NCBI GenBank assembly: GCA_022820025.1 | Contig: JAJEGF010000081.1 | Span: 48,608-112,607, forward strand | DNA length: 64,000 nucleotides | Source of the DNA: Chloroflexota bacterium | GTDB lineage: Bacteria; Chloroflexota; UBA11872 | Direction: 5' to 3' | Part shown: positions 29,197-59,243 of the stretch, in pieces | Numbering within the stretch: the first letter of the stretch is position 1 | Layout of the letters: each line of letters opens with the position of its first letter | Program-made: the position numbers and the translations under genes | The notes under the pieces: generated by a model | Databases searched by the model: none | What the model was told of the DNA's origin: nothing | Seen by the model: the letters and a program-made list of their open reading frames with translations, nothing else

Positions 29197-29286
29197 GGAG
29201 GGGTGCCCGAGTGGTTTAAGGGGCTCGTCTCGAAAACGAGTAGGCGTGATGAGCGCCACGTGGGTTCGAATCCCACCCTCTCCGCC
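29197..29286 (+). tRNA. tRNA-Ser (anticodon CGA)
   Basis: Acceptor GGAGGGG/CCTCTCC. Anticodon loop CUCGAAA. Long variable arm. T-loop GGTTCGAATCC. Confidence 0.8.
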
Positions 29287-29326
29287 GGACGCCGACGAAA
29301 GCCGCGCTTGCTAGCATTCGCCTTCA

Positions 29327-29414
29327 GGAGAGGTCGCCTAGAGGCTTAGGGCGCACGCCTGGAAAGCGTGTAGGGGGCAACCCCACGTGGGTTCGAATCC
29401 CACCCTCTCCGCCA
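29327..29414 (+). tRNA. tRNA-Ser (anticodon GGA)
   Basis: Acceptor GGAGAGG/CCTCTCC plus encoded CCA. Anticodon loop CUGGAAA. Long variable arm. Identical T-arm to the upstream tRNA. Confidence 0.8.
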
Positions 29415-46519: not shown

Positions 46520-46880
46520 GACCCGTTCGAGCCAAAGCTACATAGAGTCGCAGGCAGGAGGAGTCGGGATAGTGCCTCCGTCGGCATCCACCGGTACCAC
46601 GAGCTACAACAGGCGACTGCGGACGCCTCCGACCAGCAACGCCGGCGACCTTCCCGCACCAGTTGGACCCGAGGACGATCGATGCGCTAAACCAGCCGGA
46701 CTGACAAGGGTTATCACGGCGCCAGTCATGCGCTTGAGCCCGTCGCCGACCGCCGAAGAGTCTTTGACGAGCCAGAATGGGGCCTGTGAAGCTCTGCCGG
46801 CCTAACGCACATGATGTTTCGACAGGGCCCGAGTCATCTGGTTGAGGCAATACAACTACCCGACTTTGCGCAACCGACGC

Positions 46881-49205
46881 ATGAGTCGCTTTAAACGCAC
46901 CGCCTTGACCGCCAGCCGCGCGGTCGTGACTGTCCTCATCCTTGGAGCGTTCACCGGCTCGATTTCGCAGAACGCAGCGCTCAATGTTGGCGCGACGAAA
47001 GAGACTTTGGCGGCGTCCAAGAGCGGCAGTCGGCTAGCAGACCTTCGGCAGACTGCTGTGCAGGCCCCAGGATCTGCAACGATCCCCCCTTCCCGCAAAG
47101 CTCAATCTGCACTCTCAGAGACGCACCACTCCGCACTCGCCTCAATCTCAGACGACGAACCGCATTCGTTGCTGGCCGTTGCCGGTGGTGCTGCATCCGG
47201 GCAGAGCCAGTCCGAAGTTCAAGCAGAAAGGCGCGGTCTCGTTCCATCGTTATCACTTGCGCCCGGCACACCCGGGTCGTGCCAGGTCTATGGTTCGGCA
47301 GAGCGCTCGCACCGTCTCGACTACGGCCTCCACCGCAGCGGTTTCGACGCTGACCCTCTCTGGACCCGGGACATCAGCGGCTTCGAGACTCCTCCGCACT
47401 GGAGCACGGATGGCCGGTGGATCGTGTTCGGCGAGGGCGCCGAGGTGCACATGGTCTCGATGGATGGCAGGCAGTTCTTCCGGCTCGTTCGTGAATCCGA
47501 CGACTTCCATATCGGCTCGGCGCACTACGCCTTTAACCGACTGACGGGACTTGACGTATCCAGCGACGGAGCCGCGCTGGTGTACGCCGTGTGCTGGACG
47601 TATGTGAGTGGTGGAAGTCGGAATATGCAAACGATAAGGATTCCGCCGGAAGGTGGACGTCCGGGGCGTGCAATCTGCTTGGATTTCGACGCCTTGGCCG
47701 AACGTGTGGGGGAGTGCCCCACACGCAATCCGATGATTTCCGACACAAAAATTCTCACGTATCCGTCCGGCGACTCGACCTTTCGGGTCAAGGACGACTT
47801 CTACGAGGTCACGCTGGTTCGGCTCGATCAGGGAACGTTCACGCGTCTCCATCCAGGCAACTTTCCAGCGTTCTCGCCGGACGGCACACGGATTGCTTTC
47901 GTTGCCCAGGACGGGCGCGATGGACCCTCACGTCTCTACACCATGACAACGGACGGCACCGACGTGCGGAACCTGGGCGTCGCGCCGGTTAATCATCCGC
48001 CGCGTTGGTCGCCGGACGGCTCGCGCCTCGCATACGTCCTAGGGGACGAACACCCCTACGCGATTTACACGATCAACGCCGACGGGACTGAACGACAGTA
48101 CCTCTCGACTGCGATCAGCGGACCGGCGTGGTCGCCGGACGGCTCGCGGGTCGCGTTTGCCAAGGCCGACGGTCGCTCGACGGCGGTCTACACGATCGCT
48201 GCGGATGGAACGGACGCTCGGCCACTGACGACCCTACGTGTCGAGCCAGCCTGGGCATCAAGCATTGAGTGGTCGCCGGACGACTCGCGGCTCCTGGTTG
48301 CGTTTACTTCGTCCGTCTGGGTGGTGGCCCTTGACGGCGAATCCATGCACGAGCTGGTGAAGGTGCACGAGTCGCCGCACGTATACGAGGCGCGCTCCGT
48401 GCCCGCCTGGTCGCCCGATGGGACGCGGATCGCGCTGTACCAACCTTCGGAAGGTGGCAGCGGATTCCGTTACAGCGGCGGCGAGGTGGTGCTTGCCAGC
48501 CTGGCGTCGGATGGGTCGGACCCCCGGATGTTGGTCCGCGATCACGATGGTTTGATGGCGGAGCGTCAGGAAGATCTCGTGGTCAAGATCCCGGCGACGC
48601 CGGCGTCGTGTCGTGCCGGCGTGGTGGTATCGGCGCCCCTGCGCAACGCTGGCTTGGTCCGGGATTGCGAAACGCTGGTGGGACTACGGCACGACCTGTT
48701 TGGTACCGCCGCCACCAACTGGGGACGCGATGTTCCCGTAAACGACTGGGAGGGGGTGTCCGTTTCCGGCCCTCCTCCCCGAGTCAGGAAATTGGACTTC
48801 GGTGACGGGTCACTCGGTGAGTTCGCCCATGGCGGGGTCCTTCCGACGGCGTTGGCGGAGTTGGAATACCTTGACAGATTGGACCTCTCGGGTAATCGGT
48901 TCACCGGCCCGATTCCTGCCGAGTGGGGCCGGCTGACGAGGCTTCTCGTGCTGGACCTCTCCGACAACGATCTGACCGGCGAGATTCCAACTGAGCTGAG
49001 CGGCCTCGGCCGCTTAAGGGTCCTGGACCTCTCCAATAACGCGCTATCCGGTCCCATTCCGCCCGAGTTGGCCAAGATCGAGACTCTTCGAGAGTTACAA
49101 CTCGGCGGCAATTCACTGACGGGCTGTATCCCAGCCACGCTTTCGAATCTGCGGGGTATGGACACGTCGCTCTTGGGCCTTGAGCGGTGCGTGCCAGAGA
49201 CATGA
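46881..49205 (+). CDS. Secreted protein with TolB-like PD40 beta-propeller repeats and C-terminal plant-type leucine-rich repeats
   Basis: Signal peptide after ATG 46881. Repeated (A/P)WSPDGSR(I/V)AF motifs (PD40). C-terminal 24-residue LRRs LDLSxNxLTGxIPxELxxLxxLxx, four to five copies. Confidence 0.6.
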   Translation: MSRFKRTALTASRAVVTVLILGAFTGSISQNAALNVGATKETLAASKSGSRLADLRQTAVQAPGSATIPPSRKAQSALSETHHSALASISDDEPHSLLAVAGGAASGQSQSEVQAERRGLVPSLSLAPGTPGSCQVYGSAERSHRLDYGLHRSGFDADPLWTRDISGFETPPHWSTDGRWIVFGEGAEVHMVSMDGRQFFRLVRESDDFHIGSAHYAFNRLTGLDVSSDGAALVYAVCWTYVSGGSRNMQTIRIPPEGGRPGRAICLDFDALAERVGECPTRNPMISDTKILTYPSGDSTFRVKDDFYEVTLVRLDQGTFTRLHPGNFPAFSPDGTRIAFVAQDGRDGPSRLYTMTTDGTDVRNLGVAPVNHPPRWSPDGSRLAYVLGDEHPYAIYTINADGTERQYLSTAISGPAWSPDGSRVAFAKADGRSTAVYTIAADGTDARPLTTLRVEPAWASSIEWSPDDSRLLVAFTSSVWVVALDGESMHELVKVHESPHVYEARSVPAWSPDGTRIALYQPSEGGSGFRYSGGEVVLASLASDGSDPRMLVRDHDGLMAERQEDLVVKIPATPASCRAGVVVSAPLRNAGLVRDCETLVGLRHDLFGTAATNWGRDVPVNDWEGVSVSGPPPRVRKLDFGDGSLGEFAHGGVLPTALAELEYLDRLDLSGNRFTGPIPAEWGRLTRLLVLDLSDNDLTGEIPTELSGLGRLRVLDLSNNALSGPIPPELAKIETLRELQLGGNSLTGCIPATLSNLRGMDTSLLGLERCVPET

Positions 49206-49399
49206 GGACAACTCCTCAAAGTGACGTTCGTGAAGTCCTGCGGACAGCCGAGCGGTGAATGAAACGTCGCTCACCCACCCGCCCACGGATCAATCACCTC
49301 AACCCCACACCCCCAAAAACCCCTCCACATCCCGCGTCGCCACACCCATCCCCTTGGAGCGCGCGATTGCCGCAGTCTGGCAGTCCGCTTGACTGATCA

Positions 49400-49830
49400 C
49401 CCGACGCACATCGCGGCGGCCGGCCGCAACCTCGGCTTACGCCTGGACGGCCGCCGCGTCAAAGGCCAGCACCCGCCTGCCCAATACCTCGCCAAACAGT
49501 TGATCCACGGCCGTCGCTAACCCATCGCAACGCCATCCCCCCAGCAGCGGCCCGATCCCCGTGCGCATCTCAGATTCGGTCACCGCGGTCACGAACAACC
49601 CGCCAGTGTCCTGTCGGTCCGCTCAGGCCGGCAACGCGGGCGCCGGGCGTGCCCGCGTCAACTCCGAAGTAACGTTCGTGTCCAGGACGATCACCCGCCC
49701 TTACCTCAGTCGAACCGCGGCGCCTCCCGCATCGGCTCCCGCGGCGGAATCGCCAGATCCACGCCCCTAAGCGGCTTGAACAGCTCGTGAATCGCCGTAG
49801 CAAGATTGCGCACGGGCCGTTTCGAGCGCT
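49400..49830 (-). pseudogene. Decayed VapBC/FitAB-type toxin-antitoxin remnant
   Basis: Minus-strand 49706-49830 encodes PVRNLATAIHELFKPLRGVDLAIPPREPM, paralogous to the C-terminus of the intact RHH antitoxin at 53885..54130. DNA is about 80% identical for roughly 70 nt and then diverges. Minus-strand 49430-49560 encodes a 43-aa PIN/VapC-like fragment (…RRVLAFDAAAVQA*). Confidence 0.3.
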
Positions 49831-49962
49831 CCTCGCATGCGGCCTCGTCCGTCGAGAGCGAGGCTCTGTTTCGCCTGGGTGGCGGCCGCGGCGGCGGTGG
49901 ATTCGGTTTTGGTCGTGGAGCCGTACCGCTGCGCGGTGCCGAGTCGTCGTGGCTCTCGCGCG

Positions 49963-50460
49963 TCACCCAGCCGGCACGCTGTACTCCGCCCGTACGACTT
50001 CGATGGCCCGGTCGTGACATGCGTTGTTCAGCTTGTCGTCAATGGCCACGGGCACTTCCGGCCCTGACATCGTTCGCATTTCCAGCATTCGAGCCTTGAT
50101 CTCCACCTCGGGGTCGTACTGGTGCCACCACAGGAACTTCCACTCGTCGCTGATTGCCTTGAAATGCTGCTTCGCGCCTTCGGCTTTGGCCGACTTCATT
50201 GAGGGATCGACGGTTATCAGCGCCAGCGCAAGCAGCGATGCCAGCATGGCCAGCACCGCGCTCACCCACGGCGGCAACACATCGATCACAAAGCTTGAGC
50301 CGGCAAAGAACGACACGGCAGCCACGGCGGAAATCAGCCACTGGTGCTGCCGCCGATATCGATCGGTCAACGCCGCGAAATACAGGTAATTGCGCTCAGC
50401 GTCGAGCCGCCCATCCCACGCTATCTGCGCAATCCCCGCCTGGGAGATTGCCTCAGCCAC
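49963..50460 (-). CDS. 2-TM membrane protein, possible SLATT-like effector
   Basis: N-terminal amphipathic helix (YLYFAALTDRYRRQHQWL), two adjacent TM helices, then an about 75-aa helical C-terminal tail. GTG start. Confidence 0.4.
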   Translation of the reverse strand: MAEAISQAGIAQIAWDGRLDAERNYLYFAALTDRYRRQHQWLISAVAAVSFFAGSSFVIDVLPPWVSAVLAMLASLLALALITVDPSMKSAKAEGAKQHFKAISDEWKFLWWHQYDPEVEIKARMLEMRTMSGPEVPVAIDDKLNNACHDRAIEVVRAEYSVPAG

Positions 50461-50521
50461 CCAAGCACTTCTGGCTGGTTGGACTCGCCCATTTTGGCCC
50501 GCGTCATAGCCAGGTCAGGTG

Positions 50522-51043
50522 TCATTGGGGCCCGCTTGCATCAAGAAACTGCCGTAGCCGCTGGTTGACTTCCTGATGCGGCAAGAAAACCTCGGGATCG
50601 TCGATCCGGCGCTCCATCGCATCGGCCAACCGCGCGGCGCCACATAAGCCAGCCGCGTACAGCCGGTCGATAGTCCACAACACTCCGTGCACGCGCCGGC
50701 CCTCCGCTTCAGCCACCTGCCGTAGGCGCTTATCGGCAGTGAGCAGCAGGCTGTTCTCGTGATGTCGCGCTGCAACGAGGCAGGCGCAGTCCGCCAGCGA
50801 GAGTGCGGCGTGCTCGGTTCTCAGCGCGAACGACTCGCGGGTCTGGTCGAGTGAGAGTTCTACAGTCGCAAACCCGGCGCTTTGCAGATAGCGCCACTCC
50901 AGGTCTGTGAGATTCAGCAGTTCAGAGCGTCGGACGATCGCCGGAACAAGGAACTGATACGGCAGCTCCAAAGTGACCGCATGCAGCTGAACCTTGTGCA
51001 GGTCGATCAGGCAGCACGCGTCGATGACGATCCGACGGATCAC
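50522..51043 (-). CDS. PIN-like domain protein (DUF4411/DUF3368-like), putative toxin or nuclease of a two-gene module
   Basis: Acidic residues in VIDACCLIDL ... LADCACLVAA ... LLTADKRL. GTGA overlap with the upstream HTH gene. Confidence 0.5.
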   Translation of the reverse strand: MIRRIVIDACCLIDLHKVQLHAVTLELPYQFLVPAIVRRSELLNLTDLEWRYLQSAGFATVELSLDQTRESFALRTEHAALSLADCACLVAARHHENSLLLTADKRLRQVAEAEGRRVHGVLWTIDRLYAAGLCGAARLADAMERRIDDPEVFLPHQEVNQRLRQFLDASGPQ

Positions 51044-52428
51044 GCCGTACGACGGCTCGCTATTTCAGGGACCGGAATCTCGGCTTCCAGTGCCGCTCGT
51101 GATTTGGACGCTTCGCGGACATCAGGGGTGGCGTAGCTGGTACGAGCCTCGATCCGACCCTGCCGATCGTGGATAACCACCTCCGACCGGCTGCCGATCG
51201 CGATTTCTCGCGCGGCGGAAATCGCGTCCGCCTGCGTTGGGTGTGTCGATGTTGGCCTTCGAACGCCGATGCTCTTGACCGCCCACCGGCCCAGATACGG
51301 GACGACGTGCTGGGTCTTTCGAGACGCCTCGCGTCCTTCCTCAAACTCTGCAGCGCTCGGGCCTCGCAATTCATCCCCGACTTCACGCAGCGAGCGCCGC
51401 AACAGCTCAGCACCTCGGAAGGGTGCGAACAGCTGCTCGCCCAGCCCGCGCCAGACTAGGTCCTCAAACCGTTGCGGCTTCTCGAAGGCGCCCAGGCCCT
51501 CGTTTTGGGCGATCGGATCTGGCTCCCGCTCGCGCCATGCCCGCAAACAGCCGCGAAACGCACGATCGAGAGCTGCCGCCGAGACAACCCCGACCTCGCG
51601 CAACCGGGTAAGCATCACCGACGCCGAGACGCCATACATAAGTTTCAGGCGGACCAGTTCGCCATAAGTAAACCCATGCCGGTTGCTCCCCGCCTGCGCT
51701 CGCAGGTGCTCTTCGGGGACTAGAAAAGCCTGAGCGAATCGGTCAATCGTCTTGTCACGCCGAAGGTGCGAGTCGGCAACTGAATGGACTGCGCGCTCCG
51801 CCAGCTCGCGGGCCAGGGTCAGGCGACGGCTTTCGATCCGGGCCCTGCTGGAGACCACGATGGCTTCGGTATCTGGCCGAGATCCAGCCAGCTTGACGGT
51901 GCAGACGAGACCATCGAAACGTGCGGGCAGGTCGACTTCGATCAACTTAATGCCCTTGGATTCCAGCAGGCCGGTCATGCTGGGGATCGGACCCGAGCCG
52001 AGATTCCAGTCCCGGCGCAGTCGGTTCGCCAGCCCCTCGGCGTCCTCCAGGCTTCGGATATGAACGGGGCCCAGACTGCCGAACGGGTCAGGCGCCGGCT
52101 CTAGGTCCAGGATGTTCTCGATGGCCAGGTAGCTCTCAAGCTGCTCGGTGATCAGAACCTCGGCGCGGGCGCGGTCCTTGGCCGACGTACCTGGGTGCCG
52201 GCGGAACTCGACCGCCTCCAGCCCCTCCACCTGGCCTCCAAATAGGAAGTCCAACGACACGTCGAGCGCCTGGCCCAGACCGACCAGCACTCGCGAACTC
52301 GGCATCATCTTGCCGGCCTCGTACTTGCTGATCGCCTGCACCGAAACCGACGGCGACATGCGCATGGCAAGCTCGCGCATGGACAATCCCGCCTTCTTCC
52401 GCGCCAACCGCAGCCGCTGCCCGAACAC
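51040..52428 (-). CDS. Three-domain protein: XRE-family HTH, degenerate ImmA/IrrE-like (COG2856) domain lacking HEXXH, and C-terminal DUF2188
   Basis: HTH: RLRLARKKAGLSMRELA...SVQAISKYEAG. Middle: TLARELAERAVH aligns to the ImmA (F/L)TLAHELGH zinc site, but His-Glu are replaced. C-terminus: HVVPYLGRWAVKSIG...EVVIHDRQGRIEARTSY, a DUF2188 signature. Confidence 0.55.
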   Translation of the reverse strand: MFGQRLRLARKKAGLSMRELAMRMSPSVSVQAISKYEAGKMMPSSRVLVGLGQALDVSLDFLFGGQVEGLEAVEFRRHPGTSAKDRARAEVLITEQLESYLAIENILDLEPAPDPFGSLGPVHIRSLEDAEGLANRLRRDWNLGSGPIPSMTGLLESKGIKLIEVDLPARFDGLVCTVKLAGSRPDTEAIVVSSRARIESRRLTLARELAERAVHSVADSHLRRDKTIDRFAQAFLVPEEHLRAQAGSNRHGFTYGELVRLKLMYGVSASVMLTRLREVGVVSAAALDRAFRGCLRAWREREPDPIAQNEGLGAFEKPQRFEDLVWRGLGEQLFAPFRGAELLRRSLREVGDELRGPSAAEFEEGREASRKTQHVVPYLGRWAVKSIGVRRPTSTHPTQADAISAAREIAIGSRSEVVIHDRQGRIEARTSYATPDVREASKSRAALEAEIPVPEIASRRTA

Positions 52429-52474: not shown

Positions 52475-52931
52475 CGTGGAATTCTACCAAGGGTTGATAA
52501 CTGACCGCGTCCGGCTCGATCTGATCAGGCCAGCGTTGAGTCGTAGGCCTTGGCAGATCGCCACCGCTGACCAATCAGAGCGCGGTCGGCAACACAGGCA
52601 AGAGTGCGCTTGCATGCGCCTACTGCAACGCAATCACCCCGCCCCCTCCGGGTCGTATGAAAGCCGCTCCGCCGTCATCACCGCCCACCAGTCCGGCGAC
52701 TCGATAGCCATCGCCGGTCAGCTAGTCCAAGACTTCGACCAGGACTCAAGCGGCAGCTGATCGTCCGAGGCAGACGACGCGGCCAAATCGTGAATCTAGC
52801 CATCAGCCGCAGAGTCGTTCGATCGGCATCCCCAGCCGCGAAATCAAGCACTGTCTGGGGCGGCCGGGGTGAGCCGTGAGCCCAGTGGCGATAGGAGTAT
52901 CCTGAACAGGCGTGATCGGGGAGGCGCTCGA

Positions 52932-53165
52932 ATGCCAAAGGTGCTCCAACAGAAGACAACGGTGCTGCCAGGTGGCAGGGTTGAAATTGTCAGCCCGGAG
53001 TTGCAGGAGGGCCTGACCGTGGATGTGGTGGTGCTGCATGAGCCCAAAGCAAGCGACCGCTCCGTCATGGACATTCTCAACAGTGGGCCAGAGCGCCGTC
53101 TGTTCCAGACAGCGGAAGAGGTGCGGGCCTACTTGGCGCAAGAAAAGGCATCGTGGGACCGCTGA
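52932..53165 (+). CDS. Putative antitoxin of a VapBC pair
   Basis: 77-aa protein upstream of, and overlapping, the PIN gene. ATG at 52932. Confidence 0.45.
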   Translation: MPKVLQQKTTVLPGGRVEIVSPELQEGLTVDVVVLHEPKASDRSVMDILNSGPERRLFQTAEEVRAYLAQEKASWDR

Positions 53166-53608
53166 CCCTGCCTCTCAGTGGCTTGGTCTATCTCGATGCC
53201 AGCGGCCTCATCTATACCGTGGAGCGCATAGAGCCGTACCGCACGCTGCTGGAACCCATGTGGCAGCAAGCGCAGGACGGAAACCTCACCCTCGTGAGCA
53301 GCCCCGTCCTTCTGGTCGAGGTGCTTGTAAAGCCTTTGCAAGATGGCAACACCGAGATCGAAATGCAGTACCGCGAGCTATTTGGGTCCAATGTGGTGCG
53401 ACTGCTCGACGCCGCATACTCGGTGTTTGAGGACGCCGCCCATCTACGCGCCGAGACGGGCCTGAAGACCCCCGACGCCCTCCACGCCGCGACGGCTCTG
53501 CAAGCTGACAGCACCTGCTTTGTGACGAACGACACCGACTTCCGCCGCGTCCCAGGCTTGCCTGTCGTCGTATTGGACGACCTCCTCAAAGCGGAAAGCC
53601 AAGCATGA
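53153..53608 (+). CDS. PIN-domain ribonuclease toxin (VapC-like)
   Basis: LDASGLIY ... DALHAATA ... FVTNDTDF acidic-residue pattern of PIN. Start uncertain (GTG 53153 or TTG about 53186). Confidence 0.65.
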   Translation: MGPLTLPLSGLVYLDASGLIYTVERIEPYRTLLEPMWQQAQDGNLTLVSSPVLLVEVLVKPLQDGNTEIEMQYRELFGSNVVRLLDAAYSVFEDAAHLRAETGLKTPDALHAATALQADSTCFVTNDTDFRRVPGLPVVVLDDLLKAESQA

Positions 53609-53884: not shown

Positions 53885-54130
53885 TCAATCAAACTTCATC
53901 GGGTCGCGCATCGGCTCATGTGGAGGAATGTCCAGGTCCACGCCGCCTAGCGGCTTGAACATTTCGTGAATGGTCGTTCCCAGGTTGCGCACCGGCGCCG
54001 CGTCCCGGCTCAGCGCTTCCCGCAGAATCTCGCGAGCCTCCTGCTCCATCGAACGGCCATGCTCGGCCGCCCGAATTCGCAGCCGCCGCTTTAAGTCCTC
54101 GTCCAGGTTGCGCACCGTAATGCTCGCCAT
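53885..54130 (-). CDS. Ribbon-helix-helix antitoxin (FitA/VapB 'plasmid stability protein' family), apparently orphan
   Basis: MASITVRNLDEDLKRRLRIRAAEHGRSMEQEAREILREAL is the canonical N-terminus of this family. GGAGG SD. No PIN gene downstream on the same strand. Confidence 0.65.
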   Translation of the reverse strand: MASITVRNLDEDLKRRLRIRAAEHGRSMEQEAREILREALSRDAAPVRNLGTTIHEMFKPLGGVDLDIPPHEPMRDPMKFD

Positions 54131-57695: not shown

Positions 57696-57734
57696 CCGTA
57701 TGATGCGCGGGCGCGCCCGCAGCGAGCGTTGCCC

Positions 57735-59243
57735 ATGCCCTGGCTCAACAAGCTCTACTTTGGCGATTGCTTCACCATCACGCGCGAGCACCTACGCAAT
57801 GCCAGCGTGGACCTGATCTACCTGGACCCGCCGTTCAACTCGCAGCGCCAGTACAACTCGATCTACAAAGACGAAACCGGCCGGCCGCTCCCGGACCAGA
57901 CGGACGCCTTCTGCGATATGTGGGAACTGGACCCCGAGACTGAGCGCAGCATCCGCGCCGCGCCTATCCTGATGCGCGACCACGGGCTCGACGATGCAAC
58001 GGTCCAGCTTTGGCAACAGTGGATGCGCGCGCTGCGCCATACAAACCCGCGCCTGCTCGCGTACCTGGCCTATATGTCGCTGAGGCTCCTGGACTTTCAC
58101 CGCGTGCTCAAGCCGACCGGCTCGCTCTACTTGCACTGTGACCCGACCGCTAGCCACTACATCAAAGTGCTCTTGGACGCGATATTCGGCCACGCCAGCT
58201 TTAGGAACGAGATTGTCTGGTGCTACACCGGCCCATCGAATACGCGCCGCTGGTTCCCGCGCAAGCATGACGTTGTGCTCTTCTACGCTCGCACGCAACA
58301 GGCGTACTTCAATCGTGACGCGGTGCGAATCCCCTACAGCGACGAAACGCTCGCGCGCCGCGGCCGCATTGAAGGCAAGCGCAGCTATATCGCGCCTTCA
58401 GTCGAAACGCAGGAACGGCGAACAGACGTTCAGGTCGATAAGCGATTCGGGCAGGGCAAAGTACCGGAGGATTGGTGGTCTGACATCCCGATCCTGACGA
58501 ATCAGCGTGAGCGCCTGGGCTACGCGACACAGAAGCCGCTGGCGCTGCTGGACCGGATTATCGAAGCTTCCTGCCCGCCGGACGGCGTGGTCTTGGATCC
58601 GTTCTGCGGTTGCGCGACCACGCTGGAAGCCGCGCACAACCTGGGCCGCCGTTGGATCGGCATAGACATCGCCATCCACGCTATCCGGCGCGTGGCCAGC
58701 GTGCGGCTCAAAGACCGCTGCGGACTGGTTGAAGGGGAGGATTACACCATCCAGGGCGTGCCCAGCACGCTTGAAGGGGCGCAGCTCCTCCACGAACAAG
58801 ACCCGTACCAATTCCAGCGATGGGCGGTCGCCGAAGTCGAGGGCTTTGTCACGTCGAAGCAAACGGCGGACGGCGGGATTGACGGACGGCTCTACTTCGA
58901 CGTGCCTAGCGAGCCGGACTTGCAAAGCATGGTGCTGGAAGTGAAGGGCGGGGCGCACGTGCGGATTACGGACCTACGCGCACTGCGAGCGGTCCTAGAC
59001 GACGACCTGGCCCTGATGGCCGGACTCATCATCATGGAGCCGCGCAGTCCGCACCAAACGCGCAACTTCGAGCGGTACATGGCGCAGGCGGGCGTGCTGG
59101 AAGTGCTGGGGCGGGAATACCCGCGGATGCAAATGCTCACGGTGCCCGAGATCCTGGACGGGAAGCGGTTCGACACGCCAACGGTGGCGGGCGTGCATAT
59201 CCCACAGCCGGTCCTCCCAGGCATTCAACGCGCCGAAGCCTAG
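57735..59243 (+). CDS. DNA methyltransferase (N6-adenine/N4-cytosine class, DPPFN motif) fused to a C-terminal Mrr-cat/PD-(D/E)xK nuclease-like domain
   Basis: DLIYLDPPFNSQRQYN (motif IV). C-terminal DGGIDGRLY ... EVKGG resembling the Mrr catalytic core. Stop codon lies inside the right IR. Confidence 0.6.
   Translation: MPWLNKLYFGDCFTITREHLRNASVDLIYLDPPFNSQRQYNSIYKDETGRPLPDQTDAFCDMWELDPETERSIRAAPILMRDHGLDDATVQLWQQWMRALRHTNPRLLAYLAYMSLRLLDFHRVLKPTGSLYLHCDPTASHYIKVLLDAIFGHASFRNEIVWCYTGPSNTRRWFPRKHDVVLFYARTQQAYFNRDAVRIPYSDETLARRGRIEGKRSYIAPSVETQERRTDVQVDKRFGQGKVPEDWWSDIPILTNQRERLGYATQKPLALLDRIIEASCPPDGVVLDPFCGCATTLEAAHNLGRRWIGIDIAIHAIRRVASVRLKDRCGLVEGEDYTIQGVPSTLEGAQLLHEQDPYQFQRWAVAEVEGFVTSKQTADGGIDGRLYFDVPSEPDLQSMVLEVKGGAHVRITDLRALRAVLDDDLALMAGLIIMEPRSPHQTRNFERYMAQAGVLEVLGREYPRMQMLTVPEILDGKRFDTPTVAGVHIPQPVLPGIQRAEA

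Follow-up and report, generated by a model that had tools for sequence, protein, structure and literature searches.

A predicted SLATT-superfamily membrane protein resident at the edge of a defence-cassette turnover hotspot in Chloroflexota

Introduction

SLATT proteins are mobile, have been swapped between bacterial defence systems and are predicted to act as pore-forming effectors (PMC9226505). The two families that come closest to the protein described below, SLATT_4 and SLATT_1 (NF033632, NF033634; PF18186, PF18181; superfamily of Burroughs et al., 2015), share with it a core of about 100 residues in which a helix, a transmembrane (TM) segment, a short loop, a second TM segment and another helix follow one another. 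The SLATT-5 effector of DRT10/UG17 is a small toxic SLATT component that has its own promoter in some architectures (PMC9226505; bioRxiv 10.64898/2026.04.29.721553), and the toxicity of DRT10 requires this component (bioRxiv 10.64898/2026.04.29.721553). A third point of comparison is provided by the "2TM" effectors of the cyclic oligonucleotide-based antiphage signalling system (CBASS), which respond to cyclic nucleotides and have a CD-NTase encoded next to them. Here we describe a gene for a small protein with two TM segments, hereafter the 2TM protein, that lies in a 64,000-nucleotide stretch of a Chloroflexota bacterium (GenBank assembly GCA_022820025.1, contig JAJEGF010000081.1, positions 48,608 to 112,607), called the window throughout, and that was compared with orthologous and distantly related loci, which carry L numbers.

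An earlier, sequence-only reading of the window had drawn attention to this gene as a stand-alone one with SLATT-like architecture, placed between a decayed vapBC remnant and a module of XRE and PIN genes. Our analysis leads us to think, with a probability of roughly 60%, that the product is a small inner-membrane protein from a divergent branch of the SLATT superfamily and that it acts as a membrane-perturbing effector gated by its own cytoplasmic helices.

Results

The relationship to SLATT proteins emerges at the level of the family. A HMMER search of 1.84 billion representatives recovered 220 family clusters at E<=0.001, nearly all of them 150-190 aa long, consisting of a single domain and aligning from end to end, which is a size similar to that of SLATT_4 and SLATT_1 proteins. 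Scans of 122 of these clusters against 18,950 NCBIfam and 24,736 Pfam models gave matches to NCBIfam SLATT_4 in 90 members (best E 8.7e-11), to NCBIfam SLATT_1 in 84 (best E 6e-9) and to NCBIfam TIGR04402 in 25 (best E 7.6e-7). The leading Pfam families were SLATT_1 (31/122; best E 3.2e-8), DUF4231 (11/122; best E 1e-4) and SLATT_4 (7/122; best E 9.9e-5), and unrelated membrane families were each matched by at most six of the 122. In several members the SLATT_4 alignment spans profile positions 20-132 of 154 and reaches into the soluble flanks. The window protein is itself matched by NCBIfam SLATT_4 over residues 33-107 (E=2.8e-6; 27.3 bits against a cutoff of 55) and by the PADLOC models for CBASS 2TM effectors over residues 36-106 (E=3.1e-5). 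The comparison with the Pfam SLATT families that had been proposed as a check gave a divided answer, with no match at E<=1 for the window protein by itself but with SLATT families at the head of the list for the family as a whole; a confident match to a housekeeping membrane family was not seen.

Comparison of predicted folds points in the same direction. When the structural model of the protein (see below) was searched with Foldseek against BFVD, 10 SLATT-annotated proteins stood among the top 32 matches, with TM-scores of 0.54-0.71 (one at 0.40) and probabilities of 0.98-1.00; giant-virus proteins with this annotation make up many of the best matches (TM-scores of 0.6-0.7). The sub-threshold profile matches and these fold matches together uphold the SLATT-like architecture that had been read from the sequence, at the level of the superfamily. 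Ten diverse members score 17-34 bits against curated cutoffs of 41 (SLATT_1) and 55 (SLATT_4) and, because no member reaches a curated cutoff, sequence comparison places the 2TM protein as a relative within the SLATT superfamily and not as a member of SLATT_1-6.

The family has sequence signatures of its own. Conserved positions are W15, D20, R23, R26 (Leu in the clade of the window protein), Y27 and Y28 in the N-terminal helix, K89, A93, W107, L110, W111 and L126 after the second TM segment, and L144, N145 and C148 in the last helix. All of them lie in cytoplasmic helices, and the TM segments retain hydrophobicity alone. The family also conserves an N-terminal motif, WxGxLDAERxxRYY, and a C-terminal motif, LNxxCxxEA, both of which fall outside the SLATT_4 match to the window protein. 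Taken together, these comparisons lead to the conclusion that the family is a putative distinct branch of the SLATT superfamily, one not covered by any of the curated models.

The hydropathy profile contains two hydrophobic segments, TM1 at about residues 40-58 (hydropathy peak at 41-59) and TM2 at about 64-84 (Kyte-Doolittle 19-mer maxima of 1.9 and 2.55), joined by a five-residue loop, DVLPP. An AlphaFold2 model built on a 122-sequence alignment (pLDDT 95.5, pTM 0.86), adopted in place of an earlier run on 17 close orthologues that had given a pLDDT of 45, contains a helix at residues 7-58, in which the N-terminal helix runs unbroken into TM1, then TM2 at 64-84, which leads on into a helix at 86-112, and two further helices at 119-131 and 142-160. 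The predicted cytoplasmic helices are accordingly 7-38, 86-112, 119-131 and 142-160. The model, with its TM hairpin set between N- and C-terminal helices, agrees with the two closely spaced TM helices and the helical C-terminal tail proposed earlier. The N-terminal helix is likewise present, but its description as amphipathic is only weakly borne out, the hydrophobic moment being at most 0.36; it resembles a component of a soluble bundle of helices more than a helix on the membrane surface, and it probably packs against the C-terminal helices instead of lying on the membrane. Because basic residues flank the outer sides of the two TM segments (R34, R36 and R37 before TM1; K89, K92 and K97 after TM2) and the loop has none, D60 being its only charge, the sequence indicates an N-in/C-in topology with both termini in the cytoplasm.

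The open reading frame (ORF) is a functional gene under constraint and not a chance ORF of GC-rich DNA, because its length is a uniform 165 codons without indels in the window and 15 orthologous coding sequences (CDS), and the median pairwise ratio of nonsynonymous to synonymous substitution rates (dN/dS) among these is 0.12. The GTG start, which had been marked for verification, is the only candidate after an in-frame TGA 54 nt upstream, and the start codon stands at the same place in the orthologues, as GTG in 16 of 17 and as ATG in one. Close homologues (n=19; 75-95% identity) all come from metagenome-assembled genomes (MAGs) of Chloroflexota. One of these MAGs, jk18x40bins.16, holds three diverged copies on different contigs (L007, L010 and L015, with 92%, 95% and 85% identity to the window protein), which reflects either paralogy or a mixed bin. 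Partial copies were seen as well: L018 carries an additional 41-aa N-terminal fragment of the gene (L018:7100-7222) 0.6 kb downstream, and a 43-aa N-terminal remnant (L019:6001-6129) is all that L019 retains of it.

The upstream surroundings of the gene vary from locus to locus, while the region as a whole does not. In the window the gene follows, on the same strand, a gene for a PIN-domain protein and a gene for an XRE helix-turn-helix protein with an M78 peptidase domain and a C-terminal DUF2188, which agree with the XRE/PIN module of the earlier reading (Table 1). The XRE-M78 product resembles the RosmerTA antitoxin RmrA (PADLOC E=1e-34); its gene overlaps the downstream PIN gene by 4 nt, and the two form a RosmerTA-like pair with a PIN toxin. 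The gap between the PIN gene and the 2TM gene is 61 nt. The pair is kept together in L003, L008, L016, L017 and L028, and in the window, L008 and L028 the 2TM gene follows it directly. In L003/L017 it lies 2.6 kb away, behind the candidate defence pair HEC-01 (AAA_15 ATPase and DUF4276), which is also the upstream neighbour in L001/L013, and in L016 it is found farther upstream, beyond a gene for a GIY-YIG protein. Elsewhere the place is taken by the type I restriction subunit HsdR (L011), a PLD-nuclease/SNF2 helicase (L012), an SF1 helicase with a GIY-YIG protein (L007), a FUR/cobW cluster on the opposite strand (L004, L005, L010), a sulfatase (L015, L018) or an acetyltransferase (L002). Across the orthologous loci there are at least eight different upstream neighbours, at least five of which are defence or toxin-antitoxin (TA) modules, and the 2TM gene does not constantly co-occur with the XRE-M78 and PIN genes, being kept where these are absent in L001, L002, L004, L005, L007, L009-L012, L014, L015 and L018.

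The wider region is syntenic in many genomes, with an M23/SLT gene on one side and DUF4389/response-regulator genes on the other. Because this frame is constant while the upstream genes vary, gene-order comparison identifies the 2TM gene as a constant occupant of the border of a hotspot of defence-cassette turnover, and the XRE-M78/PIN pair as, in all appearance, one of the numerous defence or TA cassettes to have inserted directly before its putative promoter.

Such a promoter is suggested by alignment of the upstream sequences, in which conservation is confined to about 40-45 nt before the start codon, whatever the upstream gene, and begins at a -10-like hexamer. The hexamer, whose sequence is CAAAAT in the window, TACAAT in L008 and TAGAAT in the majority of orthologues, ends 30 nt before the GTG, with the PIN stop codon 25 nt upstream of it. 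We regard it as a candidate promoter element of the gene itself, the support for which is purely comparative because a strict sigma-70 consensus scan does not call the box; that scan, run together with a terminator search, called no promoter and gave one terminator at chance level. The exchange of upstream genes around a retained -10-like box fits the description of the gene as stand-alone. Between the box and the start lies a short leader, in which RNAalifold predicts a hairpin with a 4-bp stem (-4.5 kcal/mol), one pair of which changes from G-C to C-G in three sequences; with four base pairs and a single covarying pair, this hairpin is too weak to be put forward as a structure. An Rfam scan of positions 49000-51200 returned only a chance match to isrG (19 bits against a cutoff of 100).

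Downstream, the stop codon of the 2TM gene overlaps the start of a small ORF that we term VapB-prime, which is followed by a vapC pseudogene (Table 1). In 10 loci (window, L004, L007-L013, L017) it has an uninterrupted frame and starts with this same overlap. The N-terminal half of its product is proline-rich, and the C-terminal half resembles the toxin-binding tail of FitA/VapB antitoxins, its last 40 residues being about 70% identical to the tail of a FitA-like antitoxin encoded elsewhere in the window (53885-54130). VapB-prime gave no Pfam match and has no FitA-like_RHH or other ribbon-helix-helix (RHH) domain, and so differs from FitA/VapB antitoxins in lacking this domain, in its proline-rich half and in a start codon placed inside the 2TM stop codon, although it shares with them the tail and the vapC gene or pseudogene that follows. 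Over the 10 loci its dN/dS is 0.24 in frame, whereas the two alternative frames give 1.47 and 2.05; among lineages with a dead vapC it is 0.16-0.63, and in pairs with the window 0.33-0.51. In L002, L015, L016 and L018, all of which have an intact 2TM gene, only about 30 codons of the ORF are left, and the loci of distant family members lack it altogether.

The vapC gene is intact in L003/L017 and L007. A tblastn search with the intact L003 PIN protein recovers the window copy as two pieces in different frames with an in-frame stop (QA*AE), and the lesion is common to the window and L010. The idea of a decayed vapBC remnant beside the 2TM gene therefore holds for vapC, which is dead by stop codon and frameshift, but not for the VapB-like ORF, which is open and constrained. 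VapB-prime is probably the remainder of an old vapBC operon that is expressed through coupling to the 2TM gene; it may still be useful as a PIN-binding peptide, and a direct role towards the SLATT-like protein is possible but less likely.

The settings of distant family members were examined at 10 loci, since scans of genome and metagenome contigs with degenerate patterns, which depend on a highly conserved motif, yielded little beyond the close Chloroflexota clade. At these loci the gene is monocistronic, has no co-directional downstream gene and has no XRE or PIN neighbour. Beside it are encoded a type II methyltransferase, on the other strand, in L022 and L024, a 902-aa N6_Mtase/type IIG-like protein in L025, an Mrr_N protein in L026, an integrase (rve) with an MTase-HNH/IS1595 unit in L020, IS1595 in L023 and, in L029, an AAA_15 ATPase together with a sulfatase and an Mrr nuclease; L032 has metabolic genes only. 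The N6_N4 DNA methyltransferase gene in L022/L024 (4147-5634) directly adjoins the family member in divergent orientation. In the remaining two loci, L030 and L031, the gene lies at the edge of a recombinase-bearing element found at two sites of one genome. Identical copies of this distant member, P0045 (L030:6001-6480 and L031:6001-6480), stand behind different upstream genes, and the duplication also takes in roughly 1.2 kb of downstream sequence, a Zn_ribbon_recom gene and a gene for a 208-aa protein. Because identical copies occupy two sites with different upstream genes, sequence comparison points to a SLATT-like gene that is carried along at the border of a mobile element in this genome.

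The resemblance to CBASS effectors (PDLC00710, PDLC00712, PDLC00706) is weak but specific in profile comparison and extends to the TM hairpin with its flanks, and membrane disruption is the presumed common mode of action; the 2TM protein, however, has no recognisable nucleotide-binding domain, and neither its locus nor those of the relatives examined encode a cyclase. DRT10 needs an adjacent reverse transcriptase (RT) and a non-coding RNA, whereas the 2TM gene has about 45 nt of conserved upstream sequence, no Rfam match and no RT, and the SLATT_5 model is touched by one of the 122 family members. Compared with SLATT_4 and SLATT_1, the family scores below the curated cutoffs and lacks SMODS, SLOG, TIR or RT neighbours in the loci examined. 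TIGR04402, the "mobilome CxxCx(11)CxxC protein", is linked to mobile elements by its name and aligns below threshold with 25 members over profile positions of about 18-126; the member scores are far under its 70-bit cutoff, and the window protein neither matches it nor has the CxxC...CxxC motif. The 2TM-beta effector of Panoptes was rejected as a relative, being Cap15-like with a beta-barrel and not a SLATT protein (PMC12657230).

Several other features of the window were noted in passing. A span of 5 kb holds at least four PIN-type modules, among them the FitA-like RHH antitoxin gene, which is followed only by a 41-aa N-terminal fragment of a PIN protein on the same strand, and, next to it on the opposite strand, an intact antitoxin/PIN pair that is 92-99% identical to a pair in L004. 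A gene for an N6_N4 DNA methyltransferase lies about 7 kb from the 2TM gene, and L004 has one at a like distance (L004:1-1227); no partner endonuclease was identified for these or for the methyltransferase genes of L022 and L024. Between the vapC pseudogene and the DUF4389 gene is a gene for a 787-aa protein with PD40/beta-propeller repeats and C-terminal leucine-rich repeats, which is 98% identical in L010 and has diverged copies (28-35%) in L003/L017 and L009. Two adjacent tRNA-Ser genes with CGA and GGA anticodons are found about 20 kb from the 2TM gene.

Table 1. Coordinates and strands of the features of the window that are treated in the text.
Feature	Position	Strand	Basis or remarks
SLATT-like 2-TM membrane protein gene (165 aa, GTG start)	49963..50460	-	ORF, hydropathy, dN/dS, AlphaFold2 model, SLATT-type profile and fold matches
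Short leader	50461..50490	-	No obvious Shine-Dalgarno sequence; small hairpin abuts GTG
-10-like hexamer	50491..50496	-	Sole upstream block kept in all 15 aligned orthologous loci
VapB-prime, 86-codon ORF	49706..49966	-	GTG overlaps 2TM stop codon (GTGA)
vapC (PIN) pseudogene	49274..49700	-	Internal stop and frameshift
PIN-domain protein, 173 aa	50522..51043	-	Pfam PIN E=1.3e-6; PADLOC PDC-S70 (candidate system)
XRE HTH + M78 (ImmA/IrrE) peptidase + DUF2188 protein, 462 aa	51040..52428	-	Pfam HTH_3, Peptidase_M78, DUF2188
Intact antitoxin/PIN pair	52869..53165, 53153..53608	+	
PIN N-terminal fragment, 41 aa	53767..53892		
FitA-like RHH antitoxin	53885..54130	-	
N6_N4 DNA methyltransferase	57729..59243	+	
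787-aa PD40/leucine-rich repeat protein	46842..49205	+	
tRNA-Ser genes (CGA, GGA)	29197..29414	+	

Discussion

Published SLATT proteins suggest, by analogy, how the 2TM protein could act. It would rest inert in the membrane, with its cytoplasmic helices, probably packed together, serving as the gate. A cue that is not encoded next to the gene, such as a ligand, a protein partner or a product of a phage, would then bring about oligomerisation through the TM hairpins, and the oligomer could cause membrane leak or depolarisation and thereby arrest or kill the cell. The activation step is pure conjecture, because no signal-generating partner was seen in about 25 loci.

Several observations weigh against this effector model. 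No member tested, that is, neither the window protein nor its ten diverse relatives, reaches a curated SLATT cutoff; Pfam is silent on the window protein, and its SLATT signal surfaced solely in family-wide scans. Searches of the PDB returned generic helical hairpins only and no closer solved structure, nor did these fold searches find a solved SLATT structure for comparison. Within 6-8 kb of the gene, at 16 orthologous and 10 distant loci, there is no SMODS, TIR, SLOG, RT or cyclase gene. No family member was found in phage and plasmid collections (tblastn) or in IMG/VR (motif scan), the neighbourhood in L032 is purely metabolic, and syntenic vertical inheritance under strong purifying selection would also suit a housekeeping membrane role.

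Such a role could be that of an inner-membrane protein, for instance an envelope-stress or scaffolding factor, that flanks a defence hotspot and owes its SLATT-like fold to common ancestry. It would account for the syntenic position that the gene holds in many genomes, flanked by M23/SLT and by DUF4389/response-regulator genes, for the dN/dS of 0.12, for a promoter of the gene's own with no partner gene, for the surroundings in L032 and for the absence from phage and plasmid collections. It is harder to reconcile with a family that is patchy (about 220 clusters among 1.84 billion representatives), that recurs beside restriction-modification genes and insertion sequences in unrelated lineages, that in one genome borders a duplicated mobile element in identical copies (L030/L031) and whose nearest relatives are effectors of conflict systems; we therefore consider it unlikely, though by no means negligible, and if it were true, a SLATT-like fold and an address in a defence island would not in themselves prove an immune role. 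That the SLATT matches merely reflect the hydrophobic composition of a generic two-TM hairpin, with no kinship at all, seems to us scarcely credible. Every match does lie below its curated threshold and the PDB yields only generic hairpins, but the matches are specific to models of the SLATT clan among all NCBIfam and Pfam models scanned, occur in 70-75% of members where other TM families reach six of 122 at most, and run into the soluble flanks, and an independent fold search retrieves SLATT-annotated proteins with TM-scores of up to 0.71.

Two further explanations would tie the protein to its neighbours. As the third gene of an operon with the XRE-M78/PIN module it would be the membrane effector of that module, which would agree with the shared strand, the 61-nt gap after the PIN gene, the same layout in L008 and L028, and a -10-like box that is degenerate in the window (CAAAAT) and so leaves read-through from the PIN gene plausible. 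However, HEC-01 (2.6 kb) intervenes in L003/L017 and a GIY-YIG gene in L016, many orthologous loci that keep the 2TM gene have no XRE/PIN pair, and distant members are without XRE or PIN neighbours; a three-gene operon was rejected in view of the orthologous loci in which the pair is missing or displaced, and a functional unit of this kind is largely refuted and very improbable. Alternatively, the 2TM gene and VapB-prime could form a cassette in which the small protein restrains the membrane toxin or links it to PIN toxins. The overlap of stop and start codons is kept in 10 loci with constraint specific to one frame (0.24 against 1.5-2.0), and this constraint persists, though relaxed (0.16-0.63), where vapC is dead; the low pairwise dN/dS may, however, date in part from before the loss of vapC. 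Moreover, VapB-prime is reduced to about 30 codons in four loci whose 2TM gene is intact, distant members have no co-directional downstream gene, and the C-terminal half is a typical PIN-binding tail with about 70% identity to FitA, so that leftover vapBC function is the simpler account and the cassette appears doubtful, with low odds.

Within the effector model that we prefer, a bolder version can be put forward, tentatively and as a rather unlikely one. The family could comprise self-contained, single-gene abortive-infection effectors whose own cytoplasmic helices, with the motifs WxGxLDAERxxRYY and LNxxCxxEA, would detect infection or respond to a diffusible signal whose source is encoded at another place in the genome. 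In a variant of this idea the protein would be a shared downstream effector for whichever cassette lands upstream, and in the clade of the window the GTGA-coupled VapB-like peptide could serve as a brake.

In summary, SLATT proteins are among the commonest predicted bacterial immune effectors, and the DRT10 preprint calls their activation a central open question (bioRxiv 10.64898/2026.04.29.721553). Because it has no sensor gene attached and its conservation is confined to the cytoplasmic helices, a compact SLATT-like family of about 160 aa with a confidently predicted fold may offer a simple model for the gating of the SLATT hairpin. The locus is also a clear case of defence-cassette turnover, and it helps to map defence hotspots in uncultivated Chloroflexota.

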